From NCBI GenBank assembly GCA_943371245.1, contig CALRTY020000007.1, positions 46,977 through 110,976 of the forward strand: a stretch of 64,000 nt of DNA, given 5' to 3'. The translations under genes and the position numbers were made by a program. Of this stretch, positions 28,980-57,628 are shown piece after piece (positions within the stretch are counted from its first letter, which is position 1; every line of letters begins with the position of its first letter). The DNA is from Chitinophaga pinensis. Its GTDB lineage: Bacteria > Cyanobacteriota > Cyanobacteriia > PCC-6307 > Cyanobiaceae. The notes below the pieces were generated by a model, which saw nothing but the letters and a program-made list of their open reading frames with translations, ran no database searches and had not been told where the DNA came from.

Positions 28980-28991
28980 GCTGCACTGCCC

Positions 28992-36732: not shown

Positions 36733-36752
36733 GCGCCAGCCTCTAGCATCTC

Positions 36753-36781: not shown

Positions 36782-37015
36782 CCCGCCTCGCAACTCGACT
36801 TTCGGCCACAAGTTCACAAGGCCTAGCCGAGGCACCCCAAGTACCCAAGTTCTAACCGAGCCATTATCTTAACCTTATCTCAATCTTGCTGCGAAAATTT
36901 TGAATATTCATCTAGGTTTAATTTCATTTTGTTAAAGGCGGCCATCGCTCAAGCCCCGGCCCCTTTCCCCCTTCCAGTTCTCCACCACCCCACCCAGAAA
37001 GCGCCCAATCTCACC

Positions 37016-37291
37016 ATGCCAGTCTATGAGTTCAGCTGCCCCCAGGGCTGCGATAATTATGAAGTTTGGCGCTCAATTGATGCCCGTGACTCTAACACTG
37101 AATGCCCTGATTGCGGGATTAAAGGCAACCGCGTATTCAGCCCACCGATGGCGCTCTGCGGGCCTCTGCGCTTAAAAACCGAAAGCAAAGATCCCACTAT
37201 TGTGCGCAAAGAAACGGGCAGCGAAAACAAGCCACGACTTAAAAATGCCCAAGGCGCCAGGCCATGGATGCTCAACCGTGGCTGTTGCTAA
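37016..37291 (+). CDS. fmdB: FmdB-family zinc-ribbon putative regulatory protein
   Basis: MPVYEFSCPQGCDNYEVW...TECPDCG (CxxC...CxxC zinc ribbon of the FmdB type) next to fmdA. Confidence 0.75.
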   Translation: MPVYEFSCPQGCDNYEVWRSIDARDSNTECPDCGIKGNRVFSPPMALCGPLRLKTESKDPTIVRKETGSENKPRLKNAQGARPWMLNRGCC

Positions 37292-39118: not shown

Positions 39119-39152
39119 GGCGGGGGAAGAGCAGAGGAACTAGAAGAAAGTT

Positions 39153-39899: not shown

Positions 39900-39939
39900 T
39901 AAAATGCCTCGCGGTGGGTAATCATGAGTGAGTCAAAAA

Positions 39940-41070: not shown

Positions 41071-41124
41071 GGCTGATGCCTCAATGTGGATGGGCTTGCA
41101 AGGTGCGGAAAGAAGGCCGCGGAA

Positions 41125-42282: not shown

Positions 42283-42401
42283 CAGTGCAAATCCTTAGGA
42301 AGAAATAGGGCCTGGCTAAACCAGGCCCCTAGCTGATCAACAGGATGACGATCAAGCCATCAAGACAGGACCGGCGGGTAGAAAGACGCCAGGTCTAACT
42401 A

Positions 42402-43694
42402 TCACATCTTGAACTTGCCAGCATCTGGACGATTCTGGGTCCAGTCACAGGTATAGCCCTTGGTTTCAGGCACAAACTGGTTCCAAGGGATCGGTGGTAC
42501 TGCCGTCTTGGAATCAGAAATGATCTTGAATTGGCCGTCGGCCTGGGCTTCGCCAATCATCACACGCTCAGAGGTGTGGTGGTTGGGGAACATCTTGATT
42601 TCGCCCTGGGGAGCAGCGAAGGTGATGCCGATCATGGCAGTACGCACCTTGTCAAGATCGTCAAAAGTGCCGGCCTTCTCAACGGCATTCTTCCAGAGAT
42701 ATACCATATTGTAGGCGGATTCAGCCGGGTCACCAGTCACCCGATCCGTGCCATAGGCGGCCTGGAAGTCAGCGGTGAACTTCTTGGAGGCCGGGGTGTC
42801 CAGGCTCATGAAGAAGTTCCAGGCAGCAAAAGTACCCTTGGTGTACTCGGGGCCGATCTGGCGAATTTCCTCCTCGGCGATTGAGAAGGACATGATCGGA
42901 TACTTGGACGGATCAATACCAGCGGCCTTGAACTGCTTGAACAGGGCGACGTTGGAGTCACCGTTCAAGGTGTTGATGATGATGCCACCATCAGGGAATG
43001 CCTTCTTGATTTTGGCGATGATCGGGGCCACCTCGGTATTGCCGAGGGGGATGTAGTCTTCGCCAACCGTTTCGCCGCCCAAGGCCTTCATTTGCTCCTT
43101 GATGATGGTATTCGCGGTACGCGGATACACATAGTCAGAGCCAACTAGGTAAACCTTCTTGCCATACTTAGGAGCGTACTCCTTCATTAGCCATTCCACC
43201 GCAGGCTCAGCCTGCTGGTTTGGAACAGCACCGGTGTAGAAGATGTTCTTGGAACACTCCTGACCCTCATATTGAATGGGGTAGAACAGGATGTGATTCT
43301 TTGACTCATAAACCGGCATCATTGCCTTGCGGCTGGCGGATGTCCAACCGCCAAACACGATGGCGACCTTGTCGGAGTCGATCAGCTTCTGGGATTTCTC
43401 GGCGAAGGTGGGCCAGTCAGAGGCGCCATCTTCGGAAATCGCAGTAATCTTGTAGCTTTTGCCAGCAACCTTTACGCCGCCGGCATCATTAATCTCTTTA
43501 ATCGCCATCTCTTCCACCTCCTTGAGGGTGGTTTCGGAGATGGCCATGGTGCCACTCAGAGAGTGGAGGATGCCAACTTTGATCTCCCCGTCAAAGTTGC
43601 CGCCGCCGCCACCGCCACCGCAGGCGACCAGGGAGAGACAAACTGTGGCTGCCGCTGCCCCCGAGGCAACACGTCTGGAAATACTGGGAATCAT
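42402..43694 (-). CDS. urtA: urea ABC transporter substrate-binding protein UrtA
   Basis: From ATG 43694: MIPSISRRVASGAAAATVCLSLVACGGGGGG (lipobox), then a type-I periplasmic binding fold (IKVGILHSLSGTMAISE). The track start at 43760 would lie inside the predicted promoter. Confidence 0.9.
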   Translation of the reverse strand: MIPSISRRVASGAAAATVCLSLVACGGGGGGGNFDGEIKVGILHSLSGTMAISETTLKEVEEMAIKEINDAGGVKVAGKSYKITAISEDGASDWPTFAEKSQKLIDSDKVAIVFGGWTSASRKAMMPVYESKNHILFYPIQYEGQECSKNIFYTGAVPNQQAEPAVEWLMKEYAPKYGKKVYLVGSDYVYPRTANTIIKEQMKALGGETVGEDYIPLGNTEVAPIIAKIKKAFPDGGIIINTLNGDSNVALFKQFKAAGIDPSKYPIMSFSIAEEEIRQIGPEYTKGTFAAWNFFMSLDTPASKKFTADFQAAYGTDRVTGDPAESAYNMVYLWKNAVEKAGTFDDLDKVRTAMIGITFAAPQGEIKMFPNHHTSERVMIGEAQADGQFKIISDSKTAVPPIPWNQFVPETKGYTCDWTQNRPDAGKFKM

Positions 43695-43743
43695 GTTCGA
43701 CGTTTTCAAGAGGAAAATGTGCCGAAGGACGAACGGCCACTGG

Positions 43744-43785
43744 AAGTTACGGATCACCACCCGGCGAGTGTGTATTGGTTGCTAC
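43744..43785 (-). promoter_or_regulatory. canonical NtcA-activated promoter of urtA (GTA-N8-TAC, 22 nt, TAN3T)
   Basis: GTATTGGTTGCTAC at 43772-43785. Exactly 22 nt downstream on the minus strand is TAACTT (43749-43744), ~50 nt upstream of the urtA ATG. Confidence 0.7.
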
Positions 43786-43861
43786 AGAAGCGGGCAGCAG
43801 GTCGGCTAACGCACAACAACAGTGGCTTTACAGGCGGTGAAAGTCTGGTCCCAACCTCATG

Positions 43862-44060
43862 CCAAACCCTCTGCCAACCTGCTGCCTAAACCTCTGAAAC
43901 GTCTTTTGCCAAGGGTTTTGGCAAGACTTTTGCAAGTGCTTTATCAAGTCTTTTGCCAAGGCTTTTCCAAATCATCTGGCGAATCGCTTTGGCAACCAGT
44001 TGCACAACCCCCTTGCCCCTGGCGAACCCTCGAGGGCCCCTGGCGAATCTCCCGAGGGCC
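43862..44060. repeat. repeat-rich spacer between ureG and the urtA promoter
   Basis: GTCTTTTGCCAAGG occurs at 43901 and 43948, with its near-complement GTTTTGGCAAGAC at 43915. Tandem CCTGGCGAAyC(T)CyCGAGGGCC x2 at 44018-44060. Confidence 0.8.
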
Positions 44061-44072
44061 ATTGGTAAACCG

Positions 44073-44672
44073 TTAACCTGGTAATTGTTGCAACAGAAAA
44101 TTTTCCACCGCCTCTACCCCCTGGCCGCTGCGGATGTTGGTGAAGCACCAGGGCCGGCCGCCCCGCATGCGCTCGGTGTCGGCCTGCATCACTGCCAGGC
44201 TGGCGCCCACCATCGGCGCCAGATCGATTTTGTTGATTACCAGAAAGTCTGAGCGGGTGATCCCGGGTCCCCCCTTGCGCGGGATTTTGTCCCCCGCCGC
44301 CACGTCGATCACGTAGATGCACAGGTCTACCAGTTCTGGGCTGAAGCTGGCCGCCAGGTTGTCGCCGCCGCTCTCCACCAGCACCAGATCCAGCTGGGGG
44401 AAGGCCTGTTCCAGCTCCTGCACCGCCGCCCGGTTGATCGAGCAGTCCTCGCGAATGGCGGTGTGGGGACAGCCACCGGTTTCCACGCCGCGAATCCGCT
44501 CCGGCTGCAGCGCCCCGGCCCGGGTGAGGAATTGGGCATCCTCCTGGGTGTAGATGTCATTGGTAACCACGGCCAGCTCCAGGCGATCCCGCAGCCGCAG
44601 GCAGAGGGCCTCCACCAGGGCGGTCTTGCCGGAACCCACCGGTCCGGCCACCCCCACCCGCAACTTGCTCAT
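44073..44672 (-). CDS. ureG: urease accessory GTPase UreG
   Basis: From ATG 44672: [19 protein letters not shown] (P-loop), [20 protein letters not shown]. Confidence 0.92.
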
Positions 44673-44743
44673 CCAGCGGTGCAGCGCAGTGCTGCCATCC
44701 TGCCCACCAGCGGGCAAAGTTGGGTTTCGCCACCGGCTTTTAC

Positions 44744-44810
44744 CAAAAACCGCTGTTGGCCAAAACGGCTGTTACTCAAAACCGCTGCAGCCCAAAATCA
44801 GCTGCGGAAC
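44744..44810. repeat. 4 x ~17-bp degenerate tandem repeat (CAAAACCGCTGnnnnnC) in the ureF-ureG spacer
   Basis: Read directly. The last unit overlaps the ureF stop codon. Confidence 0.8.
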
Positions 44811-45817
44811 AAGCGGGAATAGAGCTCAGCCTGGCCCAGTTGAGCCAATCCAGCGCCTACGCCACCACTCCACAGCTGCTCCGGCTCGCTGCCCAACAGC
44901 TGGGCGGCCTGCTCGGCCAGCAACGGGGCGAGCTGCAGCTGCAGGCGTTGGGCCTGGGTGGGGCCCAGGGGGACCAGGCGCAGGGCGGCGCTGAGCTGGT
45001 TGGCCACCCAGCCGTAGAGATAGGCCTCCACCAATTCAAGCGGCGCAATCTGGAGACACAGGCCAGCCCAGGCAAAGGCCGCCGGCCAGGCCAGCGGGGT
45101 GGCCTGCGGCAGGGGCCAGCCCAGGTCGGCCAGCAACTGCAGCAAAGAGCCCCCCATCTGGCGCTGCTGGGCCCGCAGTTCGGGGGCGTCCCGCTGGGCC
45201 AGCAGCCAGCCGTCGCGATCCAGCAGGGCTTCCCGGGCCGCAGCAGCCCCAGTGGGCGTCGCGGCAAAGGGCGCAGCCACAGGTGCAACTCCTGAGATAT
45301 CCTTAATCTGAGCAATAAACTTAAATCCAGTATCAGCTACCTGCCCAGCATCGGCCATATGCCCAGTAACAGCCATTTGCTCAACTGGGGCCAAACGCCC
45401 GCCAGCATTTACTGGAGGCTCCGCTATATTCCCACGCTCAGCAACGGCTGATTTACCCGCATCGGCTAATTGCCCCACATCGGCAAATGTATCTACCTCA
45501 GCCAACTTCTCTGCTTCTGCCAGTTTCTCGGCGACGGCCATTTTCTCTGCGACGGCCAATTGTTGCCACTGGCGCAATTGCAAGGTCAAGCCCGGCAGGG
45601 CCGCCGCCTCCAGCCGCACCGCACCCCGCCGTAACTCGGCCTCCAGCCAATTTTGCACCGCGCCGACATCGGCCAGCCGTCCGGACTGCGCCAGCACCTC
45701 CAGGCCCTCGGCATAGCTAAACGCCCCCACGGGCAAGGCTGGACTGACCAGCTGATACAGCCTTAGCCGTGCCGCAGCAGCCCTGGCCGGATCAGCGGTT
45801 TCGGTTTCAGGTGTCAT
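44798..45817 (-). CDS. ureF: urease accessory protein UreF carrying a ~100-aa in-frame insertion
   Basis: LYQLVSPALPVGAFSYAEGLE at the N-terminus, and the C-terminal half RAQQRQMGGSLLQLL...LYGWVANQLSAALRLVPLGPTQAQ. Start taken as ATG 45817 (track 45895). Length greatly exceeds typical UreF. Confidence 0.75.
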   Translation of the reverse strand: MTPETETADPARAAAARLRLYQLVSPALPVGAFSYAEGLEVLAQSGRLADVGAVQNWLEAELRRGAVRLEAAALPGLTLQLRQWQQLAVAEKMAVAEKLAEAEKLAEVDTFADVGQLADAGKSAVAERGNIAEPPVNAGGRLAPVEQMAVTGHMADAGQVADTGFKFIAQIKDISGVAPVAAPFAATPTGAAAAREALLDRDGWLLAQRDAPELRAQQRQMGGSLLQLLADLGWPLPQATPLAWPAAFAWAGLCLQIAPLELVEAYLYGWVANQLSAALRLVPLGPTQAQRLQLQLAPLLAEQAAQLLGSEPEQLWSGGVGAGLAQLGQAELYSRLFRS

Positions 45818-46014
45818 TGGCCTTAGCAGTGGCTGGGCTGGACGGTTCACGGGCACTAAATGGCTGTCTGGCATTAACTGGTTGGCTGGCCACAAACGCT
45901 TCTCTGACAGGAGTTAGCTGGCAGAAGTTCATTGGCAGAAGTTCATTGGCAGGCTGGTGATCGCCAGTAAGTTAACGATCGCTGCCCCTTAACTGACTAC
46001 TCTCAAACCTGGGG

Positions 46015-46094
46015 GCTGTGGCCAAGCCGGTGGGCGAGGCAGGCATCCGCCAATTCAGCCGGCGCAATCTGCAGACATAGGCCAGCCCAGGCAA
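46015..46094 (-). pseudogene. relic copy of a ureF internal segment in the ureE-ureF spacer
   Basis: 46041-46094 matches ureF 45022-45075 with about 6 mismatches in ~54 nt. In frame it reads AWAGLCLQIAPAELADACL versus ureF AWAGLCLQIAPLELVEAYL. Confidence 0.5.
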
Positions 46095-46320
46095 CCGAGG
46101 TGGGTGCCTTTTATTGGATAGTCTGGGCACTGATTTAGCAGAGGGCGCTGATTGGCAGAAGCCACTGTTTGACAGAGGGAACTGATTCGCAAAAGCGACT
46201 GATCGCCTAAATGCATTTATTGGCAAAAGGCACTGATCGGTAAAAGCGCTGATTAACTAAAGGGTCTGATCAGCAGGATCACCGATCGCCATGCTGATCT
46301 CTGCAATGACTATGACCGCC

Positions 46321-46995
46321 TTACCCATCATTGGCATGGCTATTAATGGCATGGCTATGGCCGGCGTGCTGATGGTCTCCATGCTGATGGTCTCCATGGT
46401 GATGCTCGGTGTGCCCATGGCTGGCCGGCTGATCACTGACCGGTTGATCACTTGCGGGGTGATCACTGGTGGATTTATCGCTGCCAGGGGAGTGGGAGTG
46501 GGAGTGGGAGTGGGAGTGGGAGTGGCCGTAAGCCCCGCCCTCGGGATAAAAGGGCGCCACCATGGCCTCCACCGCCAGACCCCGGTGCTCCAACATTTGC
46601 GCCAATACCGAATCCCGCAACAGCCGCAACTCGTTGGTGTGGATCTCCATCGCCACGTGGCGATTGCCCAGGTGATAGGCCGCCTGCAGCAGGGCCAGGG
46701 GGCGGTGGGCCCGCACCCGCAGCAGCGCCTCCGGAGCGGCCTCCACCTGCACCAGTTGCTCCCCCTCGGCCGGAGCCAGCAGCTCGCCGGGCACCAGGGC
46801 CTCCCCCCGGGGCAACTGCAGCAGCAGCGCCCGGCCGCAGCTGCTATGGCGCAGGCCCCGCAGTCCCGTGCGCTCCTCCGCCCCCAGGGCCAGCCGCAGC
46901 GCTCCCGCCACGGGCTCGCTCAGCGGCAGGCGCCGACAGAGCAGCAGCGGGTTGGAGTTGGTGGCTTGCGGGCTAGCTGCGTAGGACATGGGCAA
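46321..46995 (-). CDS. ureE: urease accessory metallochaperone UreE with long His-rich tail
   Basis: LALLQAAYHLGNRHVAMEI core. The tail GHSHSHSHSHSHS...HGHTEHHHGDHQHGDHQHAGHSH is partly encoded by a (GGAGTG)6 microsatellite at 46489-46524. Confidence 0.8.
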   Translation of the reverse strand: MPMSYAASPQATNSNPLLLCRRLPLSEPVAGALRLALGAEERTGLRGLRHSSCGRALLLQLPRGEALVPGELLAPAEGEQLVQVEAAPEALLRVRAHRPLALLQAAYHLGNRHVAMEIHTNELRLLRDSVLAQMLEHRGLAVEAMVAPFYPEGGAYGHSHSHSHSHSHSPGSDKSTSDHPASDQPVSDQPASHGHTEHHHGDHQHGDHQHAGHSHAINSHANDG

Positions 46996-47006
46996 CAGGT
47001 GCTGTC

Positions 47007-48041
47007 ATGAGTATCCCCAGCCCCAGCCTCCCAGTGGATACCCAGCTCGCAACAGGGATAGCCGCCCCTGACGACCCCGGGCGGGGGGAATGGCAGGGCG
47101 GCTGGCATGGGGCCGTGCGGCTGCGATTCCAGCAGGGGTCGCAGGGCCACACCATCCACCAGGGATCGGCCCTGGCGCCGATGAAGCTGCCCCGGGCGAT
47201 TCAGCAGGGCGATGGACGCTGCGAACTGCCGCTGTTGCATACCGCCGGCGGCCTGGTGGGGGGCGATCAGATCACCATTGCGGCCGAACTGGCGGCCGGC
47301 AGTGCCGCCCTGCTCACCAGCGTGGCGGCCCAGAAGGTGTATGGCAGCGTGGGACGCTCGCGGCTGAGGCCCGCCGGCGCCTGGGCCCGCCAACAGCTCA
47401 ACTTTGAGTTGCTTGCCGGAGCCGACCTGGAGTGGCTGCCCCAGGAGCTGGTGCTGTTCTCCAACGGCCTGGTGGAGCAGCGCTGCCGGGTGGAACTGGC
47501 CGAGACGGCCTCCTTTCTGGGGGCGGAAGTGGTGCGGCTGGGCCGCAGCGCCGCCGGGGAGGCACTAGATGCCGGCCGCTGGCGCTCCCAATTGGAGATT
47601 CGCCGCCAGCTCAGCCAGGGTTGGCGCTGGGAGCTGGTGGACCGACTGGAATTGGCCGGCGATGCCCTGGCAAACGAACACGGCATGGCCGGGGAGGCTG
47701 TGCATGGCTCCCTGGTGTGGGCAGCGCCCAGCCCCTTGGCCGGCCCAACCCTGACCCAACTGCTGGCCGATTGCCGCAGCGACCGGCTGGGGTTGGCGGG
47801 CACCATGGCCTGTGGTCCCCTGGAACAGGGGCTGGTGGCCCGCTATCGGGGCCCCTCGTCCCAGGCGGCGCGCCACTGGTTCACGCGCATCTGGGCGCGC
47901 ATCCGGGCGGTGCGGGGGCTGGCCGCACCGCAACTGCCGCGGGTGTGGCCATTCCAGGAAACGCCCCTCTCAAAAACGCCCCTCTCATTGGCCGAGCAGC
48001 GCCAAACCGCCTGCGCCCAGGCTGGATTCGCGGCGCCATGA
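47007..48041 (+). CDS. ureD: urease accessory protein UreD
   Basis: LPLLHTAGGLVGGDQITI motif. Divergent from ureE with only 11 bp between the annotated starts. Confidence 0.8.
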   Translation: MSIPSPSLPVDTQLATGIAAPDDPGRGEWQGGWHGAVRLRFQQGSQGHTIHQGSALAPMKLPRAIQQGDGRCELPLLHTAGGLVGGDQITIAAELAAGSAALLTSVAAQKVYGSVGRSRLRPAGAWARQQLNFELLAGADLEWLPQELVLFSNGLVEQRCRVELAETASFLGAEVVRLGRSAAGEALDAGRWRSQLEIRRQLSQGWRWELVDRLELAGDALANEHGMAGEAVHGSLVWAAPSPLAGPTLTQLLADCRSDRLGLAGTMACGPLEQGLVARYRGPSSQAARHWFTRIWARIRAVRGLAAPQLPRVWPFQETPLSKTPLSLAEQRQTACAQAGFAAP

Positions 48042-48949
48042 GCGCGCCGCTGCTGCGGCTGCTGCTGGAGGTGCTGCCCTGCCTGCTGCTGGGGGTGTTG
48101 CTGGAGTGGCGCTGGCCGAAACTGTCGCGTCAACTGTCTCCGCCCCTGATCCGCTACGGCGTTCCCCTGAGCGTTTTGGGGATGCTGCTGCGTTCAGGGC
48201 TGGAGCGCTCGATGCTCTGGGCCGGCTTGCTGGCCCTGGTGGGCATCGGCGCTGGCTTGGCGCTGCTGCGCTGGCTGCCAGGCCTGCGGCAGCTGCTGCC
48301 GCTACCGGCCCTGCGGTTGGGGGCGGTGGCGGGCAACACCGCCTACTTCGGCTTCCCGGTGGTGATGGCCCTGCTGCCGCCGGCCGCGATGGGCACGGCG
48401 GTGGCCTACGACCTGGCGGCGACACTGCTGATCTGGGGCCTGGGGCCGGCCCTGTTGACCGGCGAGCGCCTGCAGGGGCGGCCCCTGCTCCGCGCCCTGG
48501 CCCATAGCCCCGCCTGTCGGGCCCTGCTGTTGGCTTTGCTGGTGGGGCTCACCCCCTGGAGCCAGCAATTGGGGGCGCTGCTAATGGTGCCAGCGCGGCT
48601 GGTGCTGCTGTTGGCGCTAACGATCCTGGGCATCCATCTGGGCCCGTTGCTGCGCCAACCGCCAGGCGAGCGGCTCAACCCCTGGCGCCTATGGCCGGCC
48701 TTGACGATCAAGCTGCTGCTATTTCCAGCGGCGATGTTGGCGCTCAGCCTGCTCACCCCCCTGCCCCCCCTGGCCCGTCAGGCGGTGGTGCTGCAGGCCG
48801 CCGCACCCACGGCCTTGGCGGTACTGCTGCTGAGCGAGGCCAGCCCCGCCAGCAACGACGGCTCCAGCGCCAGGGCGGCGACCCTGGTGCTGTGGAGCAC
48901 GGCCATCGCCCTGGGGAGCGTTCCCCTATGGCGTCTGCTGTTGGGTTGA
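48038..48949 (+). CDS. AEC-family (auxin efflux carrier-like) membrane transporter
   Basis: From ATG 48038 (ATGA overlap with the ureD stop): multi-TM protein with GNTAYFGFPV, characteristic of the Mem_trans/AEC family. Confidence 0.7.
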   Translation: MSAPLLRLLLEVLPCLLLGVLLEWRWPKLSRQLSPPLIRYGVPLSVLGMLLRSGLERSMLWAGLLALVGIGAGLALLRWLPGLRQLLPLPALRLGAVAGNTAYFGFPVVMALLPPAAMGTAVAYDLAATLLIWGLGPALLTGERLQGRPLLRALAHSPACRALLLALLVGLTPWSQQLGALLMVPARLVLLLALTILGIHLGPLLRQPPGERLNPWRLWPALTIKLLLFPAAMLALSLLTPLPPLARQAVVLQAAAPTALAVLLLSEASPASNDGSSARAATLVLWSTAIALGSVPLWRLLLG

Positions 48950-48979
48950 GCCAGGCAATTGGCCCAGCCAATTACAGAG

Positions 48980-49264
48980 CTAGGGCTGAATTGAGGCCAG
49001 GGCGCGGCGGCTCTGGGCCAACACCGGTGCCGGCAAGGCCAGGAAGCCGAGGGCCTGGGCCATTTCCTAGGCCCAGGTGAGGGCGGCGGCCTGCAGGGGC
49101 TGCTTCACATAGGCGGCCTCCGCATAGCCGATGGCGCCGCGCAGCTGGGTGCGTTGAGCCGCCACGCCCTCGTTGCCCTTAGCGCCGCTGCCGTTGGGCC
49201 ATTTAACGTTTTTACCCACTCCCAAGCCGCTGCTAGCGATCAGGAACCCAGCAGGGCGGTGCAC
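48980..49264 (-). pseudogene. remnant of a PstS-family phosphate-binding protein gene
   Basis: Reads ...GKNVKWPNGSGAKGNEGVAAQRTQLRGAIGYAEAAYVKQ...TWA*EMAQALGFLALPAPVLAQSRRALASIQP*, compare E. coli PstS [36 protein letters not shown]. In-frame TAG; the N-terminal two thirds and an internal block are missing. Confidence 0.55.
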
Positions 49265-50646
49265 TCCAGCCGCTCCTGGCTGGCATCGCGGCGTTGCAGG
49301 CGTAGGCGGATGATTTCGGCCAGATAGGCGGCATCGTCACCGACGCCGCAGAAGCGGGCCGATCCCCAGGTTTGCAGCCAGGGCAGGCCAATGAAATAGA
49401 GGCCGCTGCTGGGGGTGACGCCTCGCTCATGGCTGGGGTAGCCGGCACCATCGAACACGGGCACGTCAATCCAACTGAAATCGGCGCCGTAACCGGTACA
49501 CCAGATCACCGCCGCCAGGGGCTCATCGGTTAAATCCAAGCTGCAGGGATGGCCGGGCATGGGCTGCCAGCAGGGTTGATAGGCGGGCTGCTCTGGCGCC
49601 TCGATCGACTCGCGGGCGATATAGGCATCGATGCTGGAACAGATGCGGCTGTAGACGGCATCGGCCTGGTCGAGATTGGCGGCTAGATCGTTGGCGAAGC
49701 GAATCTCGCCAGGCGCCAGTTGCTGCAGGCGGCCATAGAGTTGCATGCCCTCGATGGCGCGGCGACGCAGATCGATCTCGCGGCCGCCATCGCGCCCGGT
49801 GAGGTAGTGGTTGGTTTTGGCGCGCACCAGCTTGGGATCGGCGTGCTGGTGGATCGGCATTGAGTAATAGCCCATCCGATCCAGCCAATCCACCACATCC
49901 CGGCCGCGATAGCGCCGGGGTGAGCGGGGCGCCGAGCCGACGCTGAGGTGAACGCGGCGGCCGGCCAGAAATAGATCTTCCGCGATCTGACAGCCCGACT
50001 GGCCACTGCCCACCACCAGCACCGGCCCGGGCGGCAGCCGCTCTGGATTGCGATAGTCGCGGGCGTCGAGCTGCAACACCCCGGCCGGCAACCGTTCGGC
50101 TTGGCCATGGCGCCGGGGCCGGTGGTAGCCGCCGGTGGCTACCACCACCTGGCTGGCTTCCAGTTCCCCTTCTGAGGTGAGCAGCCGATAGCCCTGGCCC
50201 TGCCGCTGCAGGCTCAAAACACTCACCCCTTCCCGCACATCGGCCTGGATCCGGGCCGCGAAACGGCGCAGGTAGGCGACGATCTGCTCCCGGCCCATGA
50301 AACCCTCGGGATCGTCGCCGTCGTAGGCGAAATCGGGCAGGCGGCACTGCCAATTGGGAGTTACCAGGCAGAAGGAATCCCAGCGCTGCTGCTCCCAGGC
50401 GTAGCCAATCCGGTGGCGCTCCAGCACTAGCGGTCTGATGCCGCGCCGCTGCAGGCAGCTGGCCAACGAAAGTCCGGCTTGGCCGCCCCCCACGATCACC
50501 ACCGACTGGCGGCGGGCCTGCCGGCCAGCAGCAGCGGCGGCACTGGCCAGGGAACTATCCAAGGAATCGACCAAGGATCCGTCTGGGGAACCATCCCAGG
50601 AACCGCCCAGAGAACCGCCCGGTGAACCGCCTAGGGAAGGATCCAA
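49240..50646 (-). CDS. flavin-dependent monooxygenase/oxidoreductase, MSMEG_0569-like (Nit1C cluster member)
   Basis: Two dinucleotide-binding motifs VVIVGGGQAGLSLA and VVGSGQSGCQIAEDL. Track start is TTG, and the first ~30 codons are a tandem repeat (GGSPGGSLGGSWDGSPDGSL), so the true start is uncertain. Confidence 0.8.
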   Translation of the reverse strand: MDPSLGGSPGGSLGGSWDGSPDGSLVDSLDSSLASAAAAAGRQARRQSVVIVGGGQAGLSLASCLQRRGIRPLVLERHRIGYAWEQQRWDSFCLVTPNWQCRLPDFAYDGDDPEGFMGREQIVAYLRRFAARIQADVREGVSVLSLQRQGQGYRLLTSEGELEASQVVVATGGYHRPRRHGQAERLPAGVLQLDARDYRNPERLPPGPVLVVGSGQSGCQIAEDLFLAGRRVHLSVGSAPRSPRRYRGRDVVDWLDRMGYYSMPIHQHADPKLVRAKTNHYLTGRDGGREIDLRRRAIEGMQLYGRLQQLAPGEIRFANDLAANLDQADAVYSRICSSIDAYIARESIEAPEQPAYQPCWQPMPGHPCSLDLTDEPLAAVIWCTGYGADFSWIDVPVFDGAGYPSHERGVTPSSGLYFIGLPWLQTWGSARFCGVGDDAAYLAEIIRLRLQRRDASQERLECTALLGS

Positions 50647-50835
50647 GGGATAAGCCGCTAATTAGAAGGCAAGTCTCAGCGCCATTGATCATCCATTTGG
50701 TAGCGATAGTCACCATGTCAGCCAGCGGCAGGCCAGCCAAGGGGCGCGCCGGTCTTGGTGGTAACAACGGCGACATTCCGACCATAAAAGCCATGCAAAC
50801 TTCAGCTCGCTGTTTCTGTTTCAGGCCCGGCTTCG

Positions 50836-51318
50836 ATGCCTCAAGTCACGCGTCCCGCCAACCAGCCGGGAGATTTTTTGGTTGACTACGAGGAGAAAGT
50901 ATTTCCAGATATCAAAGCTGAGCCAGGCGAGAAAGCCCTGGTAACTTTTCACACCGTGGCCTTCGAAGGTTCGATCGGCCTGGTGAACCTATTGCAGGCC
51001 AGTCGGCTGATCAACAAGGGATTTGAAACCTCGATTTTGCTCTACGGTCCTGGCGTGACCCTGGGGGTACAGCGGGGTTTCCCAAAACTGGGCGATGCCG
51101 CCTTTGACGGCCATCTCAATTTTAATGCCCGCATCCAGAAGTTCATGGATCAAGGGGGGAAAGTGTATGCCTGTCGCTTTGCACTTCAGGCCCTCTACGG
51201 CCACGGGGAAGGGGCGCTAATCCCTGGCATTACACCAATTAATCCCCTGGATGTAATGGATCTAATTTTGATGCATCGCAAGGAGGGCTCCTTCATCCTC
51301 GACACCTGGACCCTTTGA
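50836..51318 (+). CDS. Sll0783/MSMEG_0572-like nitrogen-starvation-response protein (DsrE-like fold)
   Basis: 160 aa with [20 protein letters not shown]...LLYGPGV...[11 protein letters not shown]. Position upstream of the Nit1C nitrilase. Confidence 0.7.
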
Positions 51319-51321
51319 GTT

Positions 51322-51600
51322 AATGCCATTTGGCATAGCTCTATTTGCCAGGGCTTCATTTGACATGGTTTCATTTGGCAAGGCCCTATTTGCCTTGAGG
51401 GCATTTAAATTGAATGTATTTGACTTGAAACTATTTATCTTGGAGTGATTTAATTTGAGAGTTTTTGAGATCCCATTATTTACATCGAGGTGAATTTATC
51501 TAAATCGATTTGATCGAGGATGATTTGGCCAGAGGAGATTGGTTGTGGCACTGGTTGAGTTGGTGGAGTTCGGCGTGGAGGTCGCTGATTGGGATTGCTT
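51322..51600. repeat. ~18 units of a ~15-16-bp degenerate tandem array (core yATTTGnC)
   Basis: Read directly: GCCATTTGGCATAGCT CTATTTGCCAGGGCTT CATTTGACATGGTT TCATTTGGCAAGGCC CTATTTGCCTTGAGGG ... Confidence 0.85.
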
Positions 51601-52018
51601 GTTAAACAGGTTTCCCTTCTAGCCCTTGGGCCAAGCGCCCTGACAACTGGGGTTTCGCTAGCGGGAACCCCGGCAAATGAGGAAAAGGCGAGCCACCAGC
51701 CAACCAGGTATTTAAATCAAATTAAATTCCAGTCTGTTCGCTTGCATCAAATTCATCCGAGTCTAATTCGGCCGAGCCCAGGCAAGCGAGTCTAGTTCAC
51801 TTGAACCCTATTTGCCTGGACCCAATGCAGCAGCGCAAAATTTGCTGGCATCGCCCAGGTCAATCAAATCACCTCATCCAATAACCATCCAGTAGCCACC
51901 AACCATTTACAGGCTCAATGGTCATCACGCAACCGCCAACGGATTCCATGCCCCGTGGCCATAATCTAGACAGCAACCACTAACACCCGCTCATTTTCTC
52001 TCCGTTTGATCCCTTTAC

Positions 52019-53050
52019 ATGGCGTCCACAATCAAAGTGGCGGCCGCACAGATTCGGCCGGTACTACATAGCCTTCAGGGTTCCCTGGCCCGATTGCTGG
52101 AGGCGATGGCGGCAGCCGCCAAGGCGGGGGTAGAGCTGATCGTGTTCCCCGAAACCTTTCTGCCCTACTACCCCTACTTCTCCTTTGTGGAGCCAGCGTT
52201 GCTGATGGGGCCTTCCCATCTGCGCCTCTACGACCAAGCGATGGAGGTACCCGGTGCGGAGCTGAGTGAGATCGCCGCCGCCGCCCGCCAATACGGCATG
52301 CATGTGCTGCTGGGCATCAACGAGCGCGATGGCGGCAGCCTCTACAACAGCCAACTGCTGATCGATGCCAGCGGCGAGCTGGTGTTGAAGCGACGCAAAC
52401 TCACCCCCACCTACCACGAGCGGATGCTGTGGGGCCAAGGGGACGGCTCTGGCCTGAAAGTGGTGACCACAGAGCTGGGGCGCATCGGTGCCCTGGCCTG
52501 CTGGGAGCACTACAACCCACTGGCGAGATTTGCGCTGATGGCCCAGGGGGAGGAGATCCACTGCGCCCAATTCCCCGGCTCGCTGGTGGGGCCGATCTTC
52601 AGCGAACAAACCGCCGTCACCATGCGCCACCACGCCCTGGAGGCCGGCTGTTTTGTGGTCTGTTCCACCGCCTGGTTGGATCCGAGCGACTACTCCCAGA
52701 TCACAGCCGACACCAGCCTGCACCGGGCCTTTCAAGGGGGTTGCCACACGGCGGTGATCAGTCCGGAAGGCCGCTACCTGGCCGGCCCCCTGCCGGAGGG
52801 GGAGGGGCTGGCGATCGCTGAATTGGACCGCTCCTTAATCACCAAACGCAAGCGAATGATGGACAGCGTTGGGCACTACAGCAGGCCAGACCTGCTCAGC
52901 CTGCAAATCAACCGCAGGGCCAACAGTCAAATGCAGGATTTAGCAATTGGCCTTGATCAAGCAATGCCAATTGGGCCAGAGTCCATAAGCGCTGGCCTAA
53001 CTGGCTGTGGTGGCCCGGCCGCCCCTGGGGCGGAGCTGCACCATGGCTGA
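52019..53050 (+). CDS. nitrilase (Nit1C / Nit6803-type)
   Basis: Catalytic E-K-C contexts [31 protein letters not shown]. Confidence 0.9.
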
Positions 53051-54137
53051 CCTGGCCCGACTGGTGACCGAACTGCAGGTGCAGGGGGTGGTGGATGGCG
53101 CCGTAGCGGGCAACCAGGGACGGCGGGGCGGCGCTGGCCCCTCCGATCACCGGGCGCTCACAATCGAAGGCACCACGGTGATGGTGCCCGTCTACAACGC
53201 CCTATCACGGCAGTCGCCTTACAGCATTGACCAGGGGGCCGATGGGCAGGTGCGATTGGCGGCGGACGCCGGGGCGCCATTAGCCCGGGTGGAGACTCCG
53301 GCGGAGCCGCGCTTCTACGGGCTGACTACGGCGGAGGGCATTCCTTACCGCTCGATTGCGCTAATGCATGGCAAATCGGTGCTGGCCACCACCCTGTTGC
53401 AAACCTGTATCCGCTTTCGCGATCGCAGCCAGTCGTGCCAGTTCTGCGCCATTGAGCAGTCGCTGGAGGCTGGCCGCACCCTGGTGCGCAAAACCCCGGA
53501 GCAGGTGGCGGAGGTGGCTGAGGCGGCGGTGCGGCTAGATGGCATCAGCCAACTGGTGATGACAACTGGTACGCCCAACAGCGAAGACCGGGGGGCCAGG
53601 CTGATGGCCGAAACTGCGGCGGCTGTGAAGGCGAGGGTGGCGATCCCGATCCAGGGGCAGTGTGAGCCGCCGGAGGATCCGATCTGGTATCGGCGCATGA
53701 AAGAGGCCGGCATCGACAGCCTCGGCATGCATCTGGAGGTGGTGGAAGAGGAGGTGCGGCGGCGGATTTTGCCAGGTAAATCAGAACTGACCCTGGAGCG
53801 CTACGAACAGGCTTTTGCCGAGGCGGTGGCGGTATTTGGCCGGGGCCAGGTTTCCACCTATTTGTTGGCGGGTTTAGGTGACAGTGCCGCCAGCTTGATC
53901 GCCTGCAGTGGCCGCTTGATAGAAATTGGTGTCTACCCATTTGTGGTGCCATTTGTGCCGATTGCCGGCACGCCACTGGCGGACCATCCCGCCCCCTCCA
54001 CTGCATTCATGATCGAGGTATATACGGAGGTTGCTAAATTGCTGAAGGCGTCAAATATGCGCTCCGACCAGATGGCAGCTGGCTGCGCCAAGTGCGGCGC
54101 CTGCTCGGCCCTTTCTCTATTTGAACAGGAGGGCTGA
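53043..54137 (+). CDS. radical-SAM-family protein, MSMEG_0568-like
   Basis: ATG 53043 overlaps the nitrilase stop by 8 nt. Cys cluster [16 protein letters not shown] (C-x9-C-x2-C, not the canonical C-x3-C-x2-C). Assignment rests on length and context. Confidence 0.7.
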
Positions 54138-54142
54138 TCGCG

Positions 54143-54814
54143 ATGTTTTTTATCGATCCCAGCAGTCACGAGATCGGCCGCAGTCCTAGTTCAGCCCCGG
54201 CGGCATTTACGCCATCGGTACGCTGGGGCATCGGCATAGATGCCGATGACTTTCGCCTCTCCCCCACCGCCAGCTCCGAGCGGTTTTCCTTTCATCTGCT
54301 GCGGTCTAGCTCGCCGCTATTGGCCGGTTACTGGCAATTACGTAGCGATATATTTTGCCAAGAACAGCATTTGTTTGAAGCGTCAGACCGTGATGAGCTA
54401 GATAAAATTGCCTATCCGATTGTGGCGATCAACCACGCTCTGGCCCCGGAACAGGTAAAGGGGCAAGCCCTGGGGCAGGTTCAGGCACAGGGGCAAGCAG
54501 TGGGGGTGGTAAGGATTTTGGAGCAGAGTCCCAGGGTATGGTATGGCGGCAGATTGGGGGTTGATATCAACTTCCGGCGCCACAACCAAATTGGCAAGGG
54601 CCTGATCTGGAAGGCGGTTACCACGGCGAATGGCTGGGGGTGCGATCAATTTTTAGCAACAGTGCAACAGCAAAATGTGCGCTTCTTTCAGCGGCTGCAT
54701 TGGCAGTCAATAGAGCAATTAGAAATTCGCGGCGTGGCCCATCAGCTGATGCAAGCGGATTTGAGCTATTACCAGCCCGCCCGCGAATGCCGCCCCGCCC
54801 TGGTGGCGGCATGA
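54143..54814 (+). CDS. GNAT N-acetyltransferase, Sll0786/MSMEG_0567-like
   Basis: YWQLRSDIFCQEQHLF...GVVRI...GRLGVDINFRRHNQIGKGLI...VQQQNVRFFQRLHW resembles an acyl-CoA N-acyltransferase fold. Has a small Q/G-rich repeat insertion. Confidence 0.7.
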   Translation: MFFIDPSSHEIGRSPSSAPAAFTPSVRWGIGIDADDFRLSPTASSERFSFHLLRSSSPLLAGYWQLRSDIFCQEQHLFEASDRDELDKIAYPIVAINHALAPEQVKGQALGQVQAQGQAVGVVRILEQSPRVWYGGRLGVDINFRRHNQIGKGLIWKAVTTANGWGCDQFLATVQQQNVRFFQRLHWQSIEQLEIRGVAHQLMQADLSYYQPARECRPALVAA

Positions 54815-55800
54815 CGGCCCCGGCCCTGGAGGCGATCTGCCAGCGGCTGAAGGCCCAGGCTGGCCTGCGCAGCAAGGCCGACATCCGGTCGGCAGCCCGC
54901 AGTTTTGAGCATCTGCCCTTTCCAGAACTGGGGGCAGCGGCGGCCCTGGGCGACGATGCGGCACTGCTGCCGGCGGTGGGGGGCCAGTTGCTGCTGGCCT
55001 GTGAAGGGCTGCATCCGGAGCTGGTGGAGGAGGACCCCTGGTTTGCCGGTTGGAGTGGCGTATTGGTGAATCTGAGCGATATCGCCGCCATGGGCGGTAG
55101 ACCTCTGGCGGTGGTGAATAGCCTCTGGTGCAAAGACCACCACCAGGCCGAACAGCTGCTGGCGGGCATGCGCCGCGCCTCCGACTGCTTCCAGGTGCCG
55201 GTGGTGGGGGGCCACAGCAATTTGCGCAGTCCGTATAACGCGCTATCGGTGGCGGTGCTGGGCAGCAGTGGCCCCCGGGTGCTGTCAGCGAGGGCGGCAA
55301 GACCGGGCCAATTGTGTTGCCTATTGATCAACACCAACGGCGAATTTTATCGCCACTATCCGTTTTGGGATGCGGCCACCAAGGCCGAACCAAAGCTGCT
55401 GCGAGAGCACCTGGAATTGATGGCCCAGCTGGCGGCCCAGGGCCTGGTGCTAGCCGCCAAGGACATCAGCATGGGGGGGCTGGTGGGCACCGGAGCGATG
55501 TTCGCCGAGGCGGCCGGTTGCCGGCTGAGCCTGGAGCTGGAGGCGATCCTGCCGCCCGCTGGCGTGGCGCTGGAGGCCTGGCTGAGCTGTTTTCCCAGCT
55601 ATGGCTACCTGCTGGCTGTGGAGCCGCCCCAATTAGAGCGATTACACAAATTGCTGCGCAACTACCCAGACCTGCACTGCGGCACCATCGGCCACTTCAA
55701 GCCAGGCGACAGCGAACTGGAACTGCGCCAGGGGGGCCACAGCTACAGCCTATGGAGCGGCCGCGAGCCGCTCACCGGCTTTGGCGCCCTGACCACCTGA
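54811..55800 (+). CDS. AIR-synthase-related protein, Sll0787-like
   Basis: ATGA overlap with the GNAT stop. LGDDAALLPA and SDIAAMGGRP motifs of the PurM/ThiL/HypE/SelD superfamily. Confidence 0.8.
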   Translation: MTAPALEAICQRLKAQAGLRSKADIRSAARSFEHLPFPELGAAAALGDDAALLPAVGGQLLLACEGLHPELVEEDPWFAGWSGVLVNLSDIAAMGGRPLAVVNSLWCKDHHQAEQLLAGMRRASDCFQVPVVGGHSNLRSPYNALSVAVLGSSGPRVLSARAARPGQLCCLLINTNGEFYRHYPFWDAATKAEPKLLREHLELMAQLAAQGLVLAAKDISMGGLVGTGAMFAEAAGCRLSLELEAILPPAGVALEAWLSCFPSYGYLLAVEPPQLERLHKLLRNYPDLHCGTIGHFKPGDSELELRQGGHSYSLWSGREPLTGFGALTT

Positions 55801-55821
55801 ACACTTTTGCGCAATCACAAT

Positions 55822-56060
55822 CCATTCACTTATGCTTAATTTACCCATGACTAATTTGCCCATGCTCAATTAGCCTATGGTCCATTCACTTGAAGCGCAT
55901 TCACCCATGACCTAATCGACCGCACCCTGCTCGCTTACCGTCTATTTGCCTGGAGTCTATTCGCCTCCGACTTGCTCGCTTACGGCCTATCCGCCTGCAG
56001 GATGCTCACTTACGGTATATTCACTTAAGATTTGCTCACCCCACTTTATTTGCGCAATCC
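55822..56060. repeat. ~16 units of a ~15-bp degenerate tandem array
   Basis: CCATTCACTTATGCT TAATTTACCCATGAC TAATTTGCCCATGCT CAATTAGCCTATGGT CCATTCACTTGAAGCG ... read directly. Confidence 0.8.
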
Positions 56061-56067
56061 CACTCCC

Positions 56068-56346
56068 ATGCCAGAAGTAATACTGCAACTGCAATGGCCT
56101 GACGGCCGCAGCAGTGAGCTCTATTCCCCTTCCACCAGTATCCTCCACCACCTGCAACCAGGCCAAACCCTAAGCGTAGCCGAACTGCAAACCAGGGCGA
56201 TGCTTGGCCTGGAACAGGCCAGTGAAAGGGTGCGCGCCCGCTACGGCTTTGCCTGCACCCGCACCAACGAAGAATGGCGCAAGCTACAGATCAGCGCCGC
56301 CAGCTACAGCCCAGATCAAAGCGTAATGATTACTGGCCAGCGCTGA
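56068..56346 (+). CDS. small MSMEG_0570-like protein (Nit1C cluster member)
   Basis: 92 aa from ATG 56068: MPEVILQLQWPDGRSSELYSPS...RVRARYGFACTRT. Assigned mainly by size and neighbourhood. Confidence 0.55.
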   Translation: MPEVILQLQWPDGRSSELYSPSTSILHHLQPGQTLSVAELQTRAMLGLEQASERVRARYGFACTRTNEEWRKLQISAASYSPDQSVMITGQR

Positions 56347-56349
56347 ACC

Positions 56350-56560
56350 GACTAGAGCTGAAGTAACTAGAGTTAAATTGGCTAGAGCTTAATTTGCCAG
56401 AGTTAAACTGGCTATAGCTATAATGGCTATAGTTGTAATGGCTAGTCAAAGCGGCTAGAATTGAGACTGCCAGAACTGAAGTAGATATATCTAAAGTGAC
56501 TAGAACTGAGGCGCCTAGGACTAAAGTATCTAGAACTAAAGCATCTAGAGTTGAAATACA
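56350..56560. repeat. ~14 units of a ~15-bp degenerate tandem array (core CTAGAr)
   Basis: CTAGAGTTAAATTGG CTAGAGCTTAATTTGC CAGAGTTAAACTGG CTATAGCTATAATGG CTATAGTTGTAATGG ... read directly. Confidence 0.85.
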
Positions 56561-56742
56561 GGGGATTTCGCACAATCGCACTCAATATACATATGGCAAT
56601 CATCCTGGCCTTACAAGCTACATCTTTCAGATCTTGGCAGCCATTCAAGTGGCCTCTTGACAGCCCATGTCGAAGCCCTGATTTACTGCGGCAGTTCTCC
56701 GATTTACCGCGGTTAAGTTCAAGAGCTGGTCCTAGATTGTCA

Positions 56743-57426
56743 TCACTCCTTGGCAGGGTCGGTAAACCTAGACACCGGGTTGGTGCAGCGATGCAGCGTG
56801 GCGGCCCGAATCAGTTCGGCTCCGCTCAGCGACAACTTGGCGCTGATGTGTTTGCGGTAGGTCTCCACCGTGTGCACGCTCAGGCCCAGGGCCTGGGCGA
56901 TCTCTTTATTGAGCAAACCCCGACCCAGCGCCTGAAACACCCGCAACTCGCGAGGAGCGAGCTGATCCACCTGCAGGCGCCATTGCGGGTTGCTCATGTG
57001 CGATCGGCGCGGACTGGCCTCCTGCATGCGGGTCACCATCCGCACCAGGTCATCCCAGTCGTGGTGCTTATCCACAATTCCCAGCAGGATTGGCTGAAAT
57101 TCGGGCGGGGACAGAAACTGCTCGCTCACATCAGTGATCACGATCAGCCGACCATCTGGATTCCGTTGGCGCAGCGCCGCCGCCGCATCCTGCCAAGTCT
57201 GCCCCTGCTCGCTTTCACAATGGACATCCAGGAGCAGCAGATCAGGCGGCGAGTGGTCGATGAAGGCAATCGCCTGGGCCACGGAGGAAAACACCCCCAC
57301 CAACTCCAGAGAGCAGTGCTCGGCCAGCAAACCGCCCACGGCCTGCCCCACCAAACGCTGACGATCGAGCACGAGACAGGTTAAGGCCGGCAGACCCTCG
57401 TTGTGTAAATCCCATGGCAGTGACAT
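56743..57426 (-). CDS. NarL/FixJ-type response regulator (receiver + LuxR HTH)
   Basis: From ATG 57426: receiver with DLLLLDV (acceptor Asp), IVITD, GIVDK. C-terminal LAPRELRVFQALGRGLLNKEIAQALGLSVHTVETYRKHI. Confidence 0.8.
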   Translation of the reverse strand: MSLPWDLHNEGLPALTCLVLDRQRLVGQAVGGLLAEHCSLELVGVFSSVAQAIAFIDHSPPDLLLLDVHCESEQGQTWQDAAAALRQRNPDGRLIVITDVSEQFLSPPEFQPILLGIVDKHHDWDDLVRMVTRMQEASPRRSHMSNPQWRLQVDQLAPRELRVFQALGRGLLNKEIAQALGLSVHTVETYRKHISAKLSLSGAELIRAATLHRCTNPVSRFTDPAKE

Positions 57427-57455
57427 CTGGTTGGGCGGGTCGGCGGGTGGACGAG

Positions 57456-57493
57456 TGGGTGGGTGGGTGGGTGGGTGGGTGGGTGGGTGGGGG
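57456..57493. repeat. (TGGG)9 microsatellite, G-quadruplex-capable
   Basis: Read directly, 30-67 nt upstream of the response-regulator ATG. G-rich on the plus strand, CCCA-rich on the coding strand. Confidence 0.9.
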
Positions 57494-57628
57494 TGAGGTT
57501 GCGGCTGAGGGGCCTCATACATTCATGGCAACTTCCAGGACTCACCAATGTGGGAAGCTAAAAATAGGGACCTTTACTACAGCAATCCCGTGGCACGACA
57601 CTGACTGTTGTCCTCCGATCCGGTCAAG

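Follow-up and report, generated by a model that had tools for sequence, protein, structure and literature searches.

The nit genes at the locus

Positions 49240-56346 of the window, by which we mean the whole 64,000-nucleotide stretch of contig CALRTY020000007.1 analysed here, hold seven confirmed open reading frames (ORFs), with nitH on the minus strand and nitBCDEFG on the plus strand. An earlier reading of the letters alone (the sequence-only reading) had assigned these ORFs to the Nit1C gene cluster from their motifs, and had named a failure of the family hidden Markov models to hit them as the outcome that would speak against this identity. That search was run with the NCBIfam models TIGR04042-TIGR04049 at their curated cut-offs, and all seven proteins exceeded the cut-offs with matches spanning nearly the whole of each model, which bears out the assignment. 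Pfam agrees with NCBIfam for the nit proteins wherever Pfam models exist. The genes are as follows.

49240-50574, minus strand: nitH, MSMEG_0569-family FAD/NAD(P)H monooxygenase (TIGR04046, 644 bits, cut-off 498)
50836-51318, plus strand: nitB, Sll0783/MSMEG_0572 family (TIGR04044, 275 bits, cut-off 110)
52019-53050, plus strand: nitC, Nit6803-family (subfamily 1) nitrilase (TIGR04048, 549 bits, cut-off 503)
53043-54137, plus strand: nitD, MSMEG_0568-family variant radical-SAM enzyme (TIGR04043, 578 bits, cut-off 304; also NF045502 'variant_rSAM')
54143-54814, plus strand: nitE, Sll0786-family GNAT acyltransferase (TIGR04045, 208 bits, cut-off 68)
54811-55800, plus strand: nitF, sll0787-family PurM/AIR-synthase-like ATP-dependent enzyme (TIGR04049, 407 bits, cut-off 321)
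56068-56346, plus strand: nitG, 92-amino-acid MSMEG_0570-family protein (TIGR04042, 100 bits, cut-off 80)

The Nit1C order B-C-D-E-F-G on one strand is present, with gaps of 700 bp between nitB and nitC and 267 bp between nitF and nitG, compared with a family description of genes 'separated by few or no intergenic nucleotides'. Elsewhere the genes are packed tightly: nitC and nitD overlap by 8 nucleotides (nt; ATG at 53043 to TGA at 53050), nitD and nitE are 5 nt apart, and the nitE stop and nitF start share an ATGA at 54811-54814; both overlaps lie where they had been read before. All seven genes are full length with dN/dS ratios (nonsynonymous over synonymous substitution rates) of 0.00-0.25 against three close relatives, and purifying selection acts on every one of them. 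The nearest genomes are metagenome-assembled genomes (MAGs) of freshwater 'Prochlorococcaceae' and Cyanobium from Lake Mendota, whose NitD proteins are 93-97% identical to that of the window, followed by Cyanobium and Synechococcus strains at 74-82% identity; the host is a freshwater picocyanobacterium. An identical NitD is encoded on 17 contigs, including CALRSM020000007.1 of MAG GCA_943370855.1, which matches the window. With a probability of roughly 0.85, we regard the locus as an intact Nit1C cluster of the cyanobacterial type, carried by a freshwater member of the Cyanobium/Synechococcus group of picocyanobacteria, and the features that had been flagged as odd as family norms or the result of clade-wide spacer inflation.

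One of these flagged features was a missing glycosyltransferase of the MSMEG_0565 type. In an Acetobacter plasmid such a gene sits between nitF and nitG, and the Acetobacter protein was used as a tblastn query; no counterpart was found beside the cluster or in the fetched picocyanobacterial loci, the sole match in the window being a generic one of 23% identity at 1587-1997, about 50 kb from the cluster. Eighty picocyanobacterial loci had been fetched and the seven nit proteins mapped onto each, with 61 covering the whole cluster. A minus-strand nitH divergent from plus-strand nitBCDEFG occurs in 61/61 of these complete loci, and none of their internal gaps is longer than 703 bp, which leaves no room for a 1.2-kb glycosyltransferase. 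According to Podar (2005), the flavin oxidoreductase gene (ORF7) of cyanobacteria lies upstream and is encoded on the other strand, and the glycosyltransferase is an insertion confined to betaproteobacteria. Both marks of this cyanobacterial subtype, the upstream nitH on the opposite strand and the lack of the glycosyltransferase insertion, are found at this locus. The absence of the gene is real but not unusual, given the 61 picocyanobacterial loci, the Synechocystis pSYLB copy, the Klebsiella plasmids and the 2005 description. A cluster without glycosyltransferase and with divergent nitH is the canonical cyanobacterial arrangement.

Comparison with known Nit1C systems

Several of the closest known counterparts are cyanobacterial. 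In Synechocystis (sll0783-sll0787 and a divergent flavin oxidoreductase in PCC 6803, and the pSYLB copy of PCC 6714), the seven families, their order, the divergent nitH and the lack of a glycosyltransferase are all as in the window, with protein identities of 83-84% for NitB, 64% for NitC and 60% for NitD. By contrast, nitB and nitC are separated there by 161 nt and nitF and nitG by 3 nt, tandem arrays are lacking, and the flanking genes are different. The arrangement nitHBCDEFG has also been reported from marine Synechococcus and Prochlorococcus (Dore et al. 2023, ISME J) and from Ca. Regnicoccus frigidus (Panwar et al. 2022, Microbiome), and these clusters share the gene content, order and orientation of the window, a NitD that is 67-79% identical, and the proximal GT-N10-AC promoter box described below. 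They differ from the window in a nitB-nitC distance of 18-28 nt, in the lack of arrays and in their genomic neighbourhoods. The locus thus adds another copy of a cluster already reported from marine and Antarctic picocyanobacteria.

Outside the cyanobacteria, the Pseudomonas Nit1C cluster consists of the same seven families and is induced under nitrogen limitation, although its nitH is the last gene on the same strand and a sigma-54 activator, NitA, takes the place of NtcA-type control. Mutants of P. pseudoalcaligenes in nitA, nitB and nitC do not grow on cyanide or nitriles. In M. smegmatis, the gpr cluster MSMEG_0565-0572, whose families are shared with the window and gave the NCBIfam models their names, shows a more than 500-fold GlnR-dependent induction upon nitrogen starvation and is associated with a higher NADPH/NADP ratio and with peroxide resistance. 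Unlike the window, it contains the MSMEG_0565 glycosyltransferase and an amidase, and, to judge by how the models are named, MSMEG_0567 is a fusion of its GNAT and PurM-like parts. The Klebsiella plasmid version lacks a glycosyltransferase and adds an AMP-binding enzyme and a MocR-type regulator.

In all, 373 Klebsiella records matched Nit1C, many of them K. pneumoniae plasmid records. The one record opened, K. pneumoniae plasmid CP069366.1 (locus L002; IncHI1B/IncFIB, labelled a virulence plasmid), carries nitBCDEFGH and the AMP-binding enzyme, with the MocR-type regulator divergent, and its NitD is 58.6% identical to that of the window.

Conserved elements in the nitH-nitB promoter region

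Two imperfect NtcA-like boxes had been pointed out in the divergent promoter region. Both are present, and they are better supported than had been assumed.

50700-50713: distal NtcA-like box GTAGCGATAGTCAC (GTA-N8-CAC), 136 nt upstream of the nitB ATG
50761-50774: proximal NtcA-like box GTAACAACGGCGAC (GT-N10-AC), 75 nt upstream of the nitB ATG

The pattern GTA-N9-AC occurs at -185 to -100 in 56/59 non-redundant picocyanobacterial nitB upstream regions, (shuffles: mean 3.7, maximum 10), while GT-N10-AC occurs at -90 to -55 in all 59 of the non-redundant loci, including those of Prochlorococcus (shuffles: mean 7, maximum 16); these counts are taken over related sequences and include kinship, with the inner positions varying while the flanks stay fixed. 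The consensus of the proximal box is ATTYGGT-GGCATCGGCGAC-A. In Synechocystis, chromatin immunoprecipitation sequencing of NtcA gave two overlapping peaks in the sll0783 bidirectional promoter. Judged from these sequence patterns, control of the divergent nitH and nitB promoters by NtcA is likely.

Downstream of the proximal box, at about -50 to -30 from the nitB ATG, many lineages (L025, L047, L060, L061, L063, L064 and others) carry AAAACTTCA followed by the palindrome CCGTGSMACGG. The clade of the window has a rearranged version, CATAAAAGCCATGCAAACTTCAG. The element with its palindrome might provide a second binding site or serve as a leader element.

Degenerate tandem arrays in the intergenic spacers

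The 700-bp gap between nitB and nitC (51319-52018) and the 267-bp gap between nitF and nitG (55801-56067) are far longer than the respective medians of the other loci, 23 and 72 bp. Arrays with periods of 12-45 nt overall lie in the nit spacers, where the arrays listed below were obtained with Tandem Repeats Finder and a periodicity scan.

50550-50635, unstranded: array of tandem repeats with a 12/36-nt period, inside the longest nitH ORF at its 5' end
51319-51600, unstranded: degenerate array of 15-nt period with about 19 units (approximately YATTTGNC and 7 variable bases)
51701-52018: remainder of the nitB-nitC spacer, non-repetitive and without an NtcA-like box
55801-56067: nitF-nitG spacer, about 17 degenerate 15-nt units (approximately ATTYRCYYANG and variable bases) over almost its entire length
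56350-56555: array downstream of nitG with a 15/30/45-nt period (approximately CTAGARYTRAA and variable bases)

The sequence-only reading had described 700 bp of repeat array that splits the cluster. The gap is real and lineage-specific, but only its first 280 nt or so form a clear 15-nt array, with two small hairpins directly 3' of nitB, and the inflation is not special to the cluster. Among the closest relatives, the nitB-nitC gap measures 60 nt in locus L012, 248 nt in L010 and 699-700 nt in L011 and the window; the expansion, as read from these sequences, is recent and lineage-specific. Similar arrays, with periods of 9-23 nt and a unit that differs from array to array, fill other low-GC intergenic stretches of the window.

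9781-10260, 35101-35420, 37381-37580, 43801-44040, 45241-45640, 46081-46600: array-rich low-GC stretches
50481-50700, 51241-51540, 55761-56060, 56281-56600, 57361-57580: array-rich low-GC stretches from the nit region onward

Under a strict threshold, the array load in the nit loci of the clade (L004-L012) amounts to 49-103 bases per kb, with lower loads in a few other freshwater lineages and none in 58 out of 89 scanned loci (of these 89, all except two are picocyanobacterial), a zero group that includes all marine loci. Since the load is high across the loci of the clade, the arrays belong to the intergenic DNA of the lineage and not to the nit cluster, and on this sequence comparison the 700-bp and 267-bp spacers are the outcome of degenerate arrays having inflated intergenic DNA throughout the clade. 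The spacer between nitB and nitC is 100% identical in every fetched contig of the population that spans it, namely in 5/6 fetched places from different samples with an identical NitD, and has the same length in L011 at 89% identity. Array lengths are unchanged between L011 and the window, which indicates that the arrays are old rather than hypervariable. By BLAST, the 700-bp spacer is single-copy in the window and is thus no multi-copy mobile element there. Counts of 7-mers in low-GC segments hinted at an enrichment of TTTGCCA-type words, with small counts that derive from the arrays themselves. A description of these arrays was not found in the literature searched.

A conserved core within the nitB-nitC spacer

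Within this spacer lies a stretch that has changed little.

51527-51700, plus strand: 173-nt non-coding core with hairpins GGGCCAAGCGCCC and GGGGTTTCGCTAGCGGGAACCCC

Compared with L011, the core differs by 6 substitutions and one indel (about 3.5%), whereas the synonymous divergence of the nit genes is 0.12-0.35, so that the core is about 5 times more conserved than synonymous sites. L010 retains 49 nt of it, including two hairpins. A 68-amino-acid ORF that runs across the core is frameshifted in L011, indicating that the core is not coding. Folded as RNA, the plus strand scored z = -1.8 against shuffles and the minus strand z = 0.1. Rfam has no match to the core, and nothing was found in 50400-52200 at E up to 1. 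BLAST revealed no second copy of the core in the window, and two exact-pattern scans of the metagenome collection gave no match to the spacer hairpin. The spacer holds neither an NtcA-like box nor a plus-strand sigma-70-like promoter. Terminator-like sites number 3, compared with 1.8 in shuffles, and neither the sigma-70 promoter scan nor the terminator scan rose above shuffles.

NitH and NitB

The nitH gene lacks an ATG start, and its in-frame candidates are TTG at 50646, TTG at 50574, TTG at 50562 and GTG at 50502. The gene call on the matching contig CALRSM020000007.1 gives a product of 444 amino acids, and TIGR04046 matches the longest nitH ORF only from residue 48 onward. The array at 50550-50635 is probably a non-coding leader or spacer. 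NitH has Pyr_redox_3 and FMO-like Pfam matches, and in the PDB it comes closest to 4USQ and 4A9W, both type II flavin monooxygenases.

NitB is exceptionally conserved, with 83% identity to Sll0783 itself and at least 79% identity to alpha- and betaproteobacterial homologues, and nitB shows a dN of about 0 at a dS of 0.23-0.40 against close relatives. Sequence searches (Pfam, PDB and sequence profiles) gave no meaningful relative. The sequence-only reading had called this protein DsrE-like, and structure prediction supports it: the AlphaFold2 model (mean predicted local distance difference test score, pLDDT, 83.3) has as its top 14 Foldseek matches in the PDB only structures of the DsrE/DsrF/YchN/TusBCD fold, counting a designed cage based on it; the match probability is 1.00 and the target-normalised template-modelling (TM) score reaches 0.83. 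The model thus supports a DsrE/YchN-type alpha/beta fold for NitB. Its single cysteine, Cys113, is essentially invariant and sits at a strand-to-helix junction of the model, where it is a candidate counterpart of Cys78 of DsrE/TusD and may carry a persulfide.

NitC, NitD, NitE, NitF and NitG

NitC aligns with Nit6803 (PDB 3WUY) at E = 8e-140 with the FPETF, RRKLTPT and ACWEH motifs conserved, so by sequence its Glu-Lys-Cys triad is intact, as had been read from the motifs.

The cluster motif of NitD, C122-x9-C132-x2-C135, is indeed present, but its long spacing is not the oddity that it had been taken for. We aligned the protein of the window with 91 diverse full-length homologues, for which 1.84 billion proteins had been searched, to give 92 sequences: C-x9-C-x2-C occurs in 16 and C-x8-C-x2-C in 61 of them, and the few without the motif resemble frameshifted fragments. 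Members with either spacing exceed the TIGR04043 cut-off. In these sequences C-x8/9-C-x2-C instead of C-x3-C-x2-C is a hallmark of the whole MSMEG_0568 radical-SAM family. A second, C-terminal cysteine triad, C348-x2-C351-x2-C354 (window 54084-54104), is conserved in 81-82 of the 92 aligned sequences, and its conservation suggests an auxiliary Fe-S cluster across the family. The closest named relatives of NitD are LipS2, BioB, HmdB and PylB; a PDB sequence search gave no solved relative.

Natural NitD-NitE fusions of 503-543 amino acids exist in other organisms (proteins P0123, P0132, P0134, P0137 and P0140). Given such fusions elsewhere and the translational coupling of nitC with nitD and of nitE with nitF here, NitD, NitE and NitF probably act together. 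The closest solved relatives of NitF are ThiL and PurL. NitG has a confident AlphaFold2 model (pLDDT 92.8) without a solved structural relative in the PDB by Foldseek, where the best match reached E = 0.54 with a TM score below 0.4, and a PDB sequence search gave nothing meaningful for it either.

Genomic neighbourhood

The genes ureG, ureF, ureE and ureD lie directly upstream of the cluster, urtABCDE 5.5-11 kb upstream and a formamidase gene 12.5 kb upstream. These urease-accessory, urea-transport and formamidase neighbours had been noted as unusual; they are present as described, and the neighbourhood is common only to the nearest MAGs, L010 and L012, among the fetched loci, and the label of unusual is not supported. 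Of the four points once called unusual, three are norms of the family or clade, and the fourth, the 700-bp gap, follows from repeat inflation across the lineage. Perfect NtcA boxes were observed at 35458-35471 (GTATCAACAGTTAC), 55 nt upstream of the formamidase (fmdA) ATG, and at 43772-43785 (GTATTGGTTGCTAC), upstream of urtA. Considered alongside the urease accessory genes and the nit cluster, they suggest a nitrogen-scavenging stretch of about 20 kb that may be under NtcA control.

Two long neighbouring ORFs run into arrays. In the UreF ORF (44798-45895, minus strand), the UreF domain covers only residues 202-323 of 365 amino acids, and the N-terminal portion of the ORF overlaps the 18-nt arrays at 45241-45640. 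A LuxR-type response regulator ORF (56743-57522, minus strand) begins in a (TGGG)16 array at 57428-57491 that would encode PTHP repeats, and its gene calls range from 227 to 255 amino acids between contigs. Both ORFs are probably over-called at their 5' ends. The regulator was considered as a relative of the LuxR-type regulator beside nitH in Synechocystis PCC 6714 and rejected, the likeness being only a generic helix-turn-helix.

The G+C content of the window is uneven, at 0.50-0.72 in 2-kb windows (36000-44000 compared with 16000-34000 and 44000-50000), with urtABCDE at 0.50-0.53 and neighbouring genes at 0.64-0.72; this unevenness could stem from the codon usage of strongly expressed genes, from horizontal transfer or from spacers rich in arrays. 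A tRNA-Val gene (anticodon TAC) at 16237-16308 on the minus strand is the only match in the window by Rfam (at gathering thresholds) or ARAGORN.

Proposed role of the cluster and competing explanations

A defined substrate or product of Nit1C was not found in the literature searched, in agreement with the sequence-only reading. The cluster most likely serves as a nitrogen-stress module, probably controlled by NtcA, with ammonium set free by the nitrilase. When nitrogen is limiting, the divergent nitH and nitB promoters would probably be activated by NtcA or by another CRP-family factor related to it. NitC would convert a nitrile to a carboxylate and ammonium, the one biochemically anchored step of the scheme, and the ammonium would feed nitrogen assimilation. 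By analogy with the Nit6803 and Nit11764 nitrilases, whose best known substrates are fumaronitrile and cinnamonitrile, the NitC substrate is probably planar and alpha,beta-unsaturated. NitD with its two putative Fe-S clusters, the GNAT protein NitE and the ATP-dependent, PurM-like NitF would form one unit working on the same small molecule, assisted by NitB, the flavin monooxygenase NitH and NitG, and together these proteins would make or process the nitrile or a co-substrate. As to the net role, we see about an even chance that it is nitrogen salvage or the detoxification of cyanide- or nitrile-type compounds.

Several points weigh against this scheme. The nitrilase homologues are poor on cyanide and of modest efficiency on their best known nitriles, and simple nitrile salvage leaves six accessory proteins unexplained. 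NCBI curators label the cluster 'biosynthetic' (RefSeq Gene Ontology (GO) term 'biosynthetic process'), and the M. smegmatis phenotype concerns the NADPH/NADP ratio and peroxide resistance. On the regulatory side, both nit boxes deviate from the canonical GTA-N8-TAC, which in its strict form occurs in the nitH-nitB regions of only 5/74 loci, and in none of 56 loci is the distal box followed, at the canonical 22 nt, by a TA-N3-T -10 box; both findings speak against a class II NtcA promoter of the textbook kind, and NtcA is the candidate binding factor. For this organism, co-transcription across the 700-bp spacer and the regulation as a whole are putative.

The main competitor to the nitrogen-stress module holds that under nitrogen stress the cluster builds a small molecule, possibly redox-active or sulfur-containing, where the nitrilase would be a scaffold or an enzyme for tailoring or amide formation. 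We consider this possible but, on balance, somewhat doubtful. The enzyme set, a radical-SAM enzyme with a probable auxiliary cluster together with GNAT, ATP-dependent PurM-like and flavin monooxygenase proteins, is typical of biosynthesis, the clusters of other taxa additionally encode a glycosyltransferase or an AMP-binding enzyme, and both the curators' label and the mycobacterial redox phenotype are in keeping with it, as are the DsrE fold and invariant cysteine of NitB and the nearest named relatives of NitD. Jones et al. have moreover proposed a biosynthetic metabolon around a filament-forming nitrilase core. However, about 20 years have passed without a detected product, the genetics of Pseudomonas link nitB and nitC to growth on cyanide and nitriles, the cluster follows low-nitrogen waters in the ocean, and here it is placed among nitrogen-scavenging genes that carry canonical NtcA boxes. 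A further reading makes Nit1C a sulfur-inserting pathway, in which NitB would carry a persulfide to a two-cluster, BioB/LipS2-like NitD, the metabolite sought for Nit1C would be a thio-compound made or processed with NitE and NitF, and the nitrilase would release ammonium from its nitrile group. We regard this reading as a long shot; if it were true, the 173-nt core could be a leader sensing that metabolite.

Two further explanations concern the layout of this copy. It might be that the spacer separates nitB, under its NtcA-type promoter, from nitCDEFG, which would be served by a promoter in the spacer or by an RNA element corresponding to the 173-nt core. The conservation of the core beyond synonymous sites and its partial retention in L010 speak for such an uncoupling, the sense strand folds somewhat better than shuffles, and the G+C-rich hairpins directly after nitB, seen in many freshwater relatives, fit a differential expression of nitB and the downstream genes. 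But the spacer carries neither of the promoter signals sought in it, Rfam knows no family for the core, a z-score of -1.8 is weak, and the core is present in only three sequences, too few for covariation, so that we hold uncoupling to be rather unlikely. Far less probable is that the copy is split and reduced, lacks its glycosyltransferase, deviates in its radical-SAM motif and may therefore work differently from other Nit1C clusters. The two gaps far above the medians of other loci and the terminator-like hairpins after nitB would fit such an atypical variant; by contrast, the lack of a glycosyltransferase, the divergent nitH and the long cysteine spacing are common to all relatives, the genes are full length and under purifying selection, the number of terminator-like sites is close to that in shuffles (3 versus 1.8), and repeat inflation is also seen in unrelated intergenic regions of the window. 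The shared layout, motif and inflation in the comparative data largely refute this explanation, and the locus is better read as the intact cyanobacterial-type cluster described above.

The biochemical role of Nit1C has been a question since 2005, and the cluster is widespread, occurring in marine and freshwater picocyanobacteria, cyanide-growing pseudomonads, mycobacteria and Klebsiella virulence plasmids. This copy gives no new way into the function of Nit1C, nor does it make that question easier to test than the cultured models already do. The intergenic DNA of the freshwater clade, swollen by repeats, may merit separate attention. For the family as a whole, handles are offered by the two conserved promoter elements, the NitD-NitE fusions and the probable second Fe-S site of NitD, as well as by NitB, with its predicted DsrE fold and one invariant cysteine, and NitG, with a confidently predicted fold that has no solved relative.

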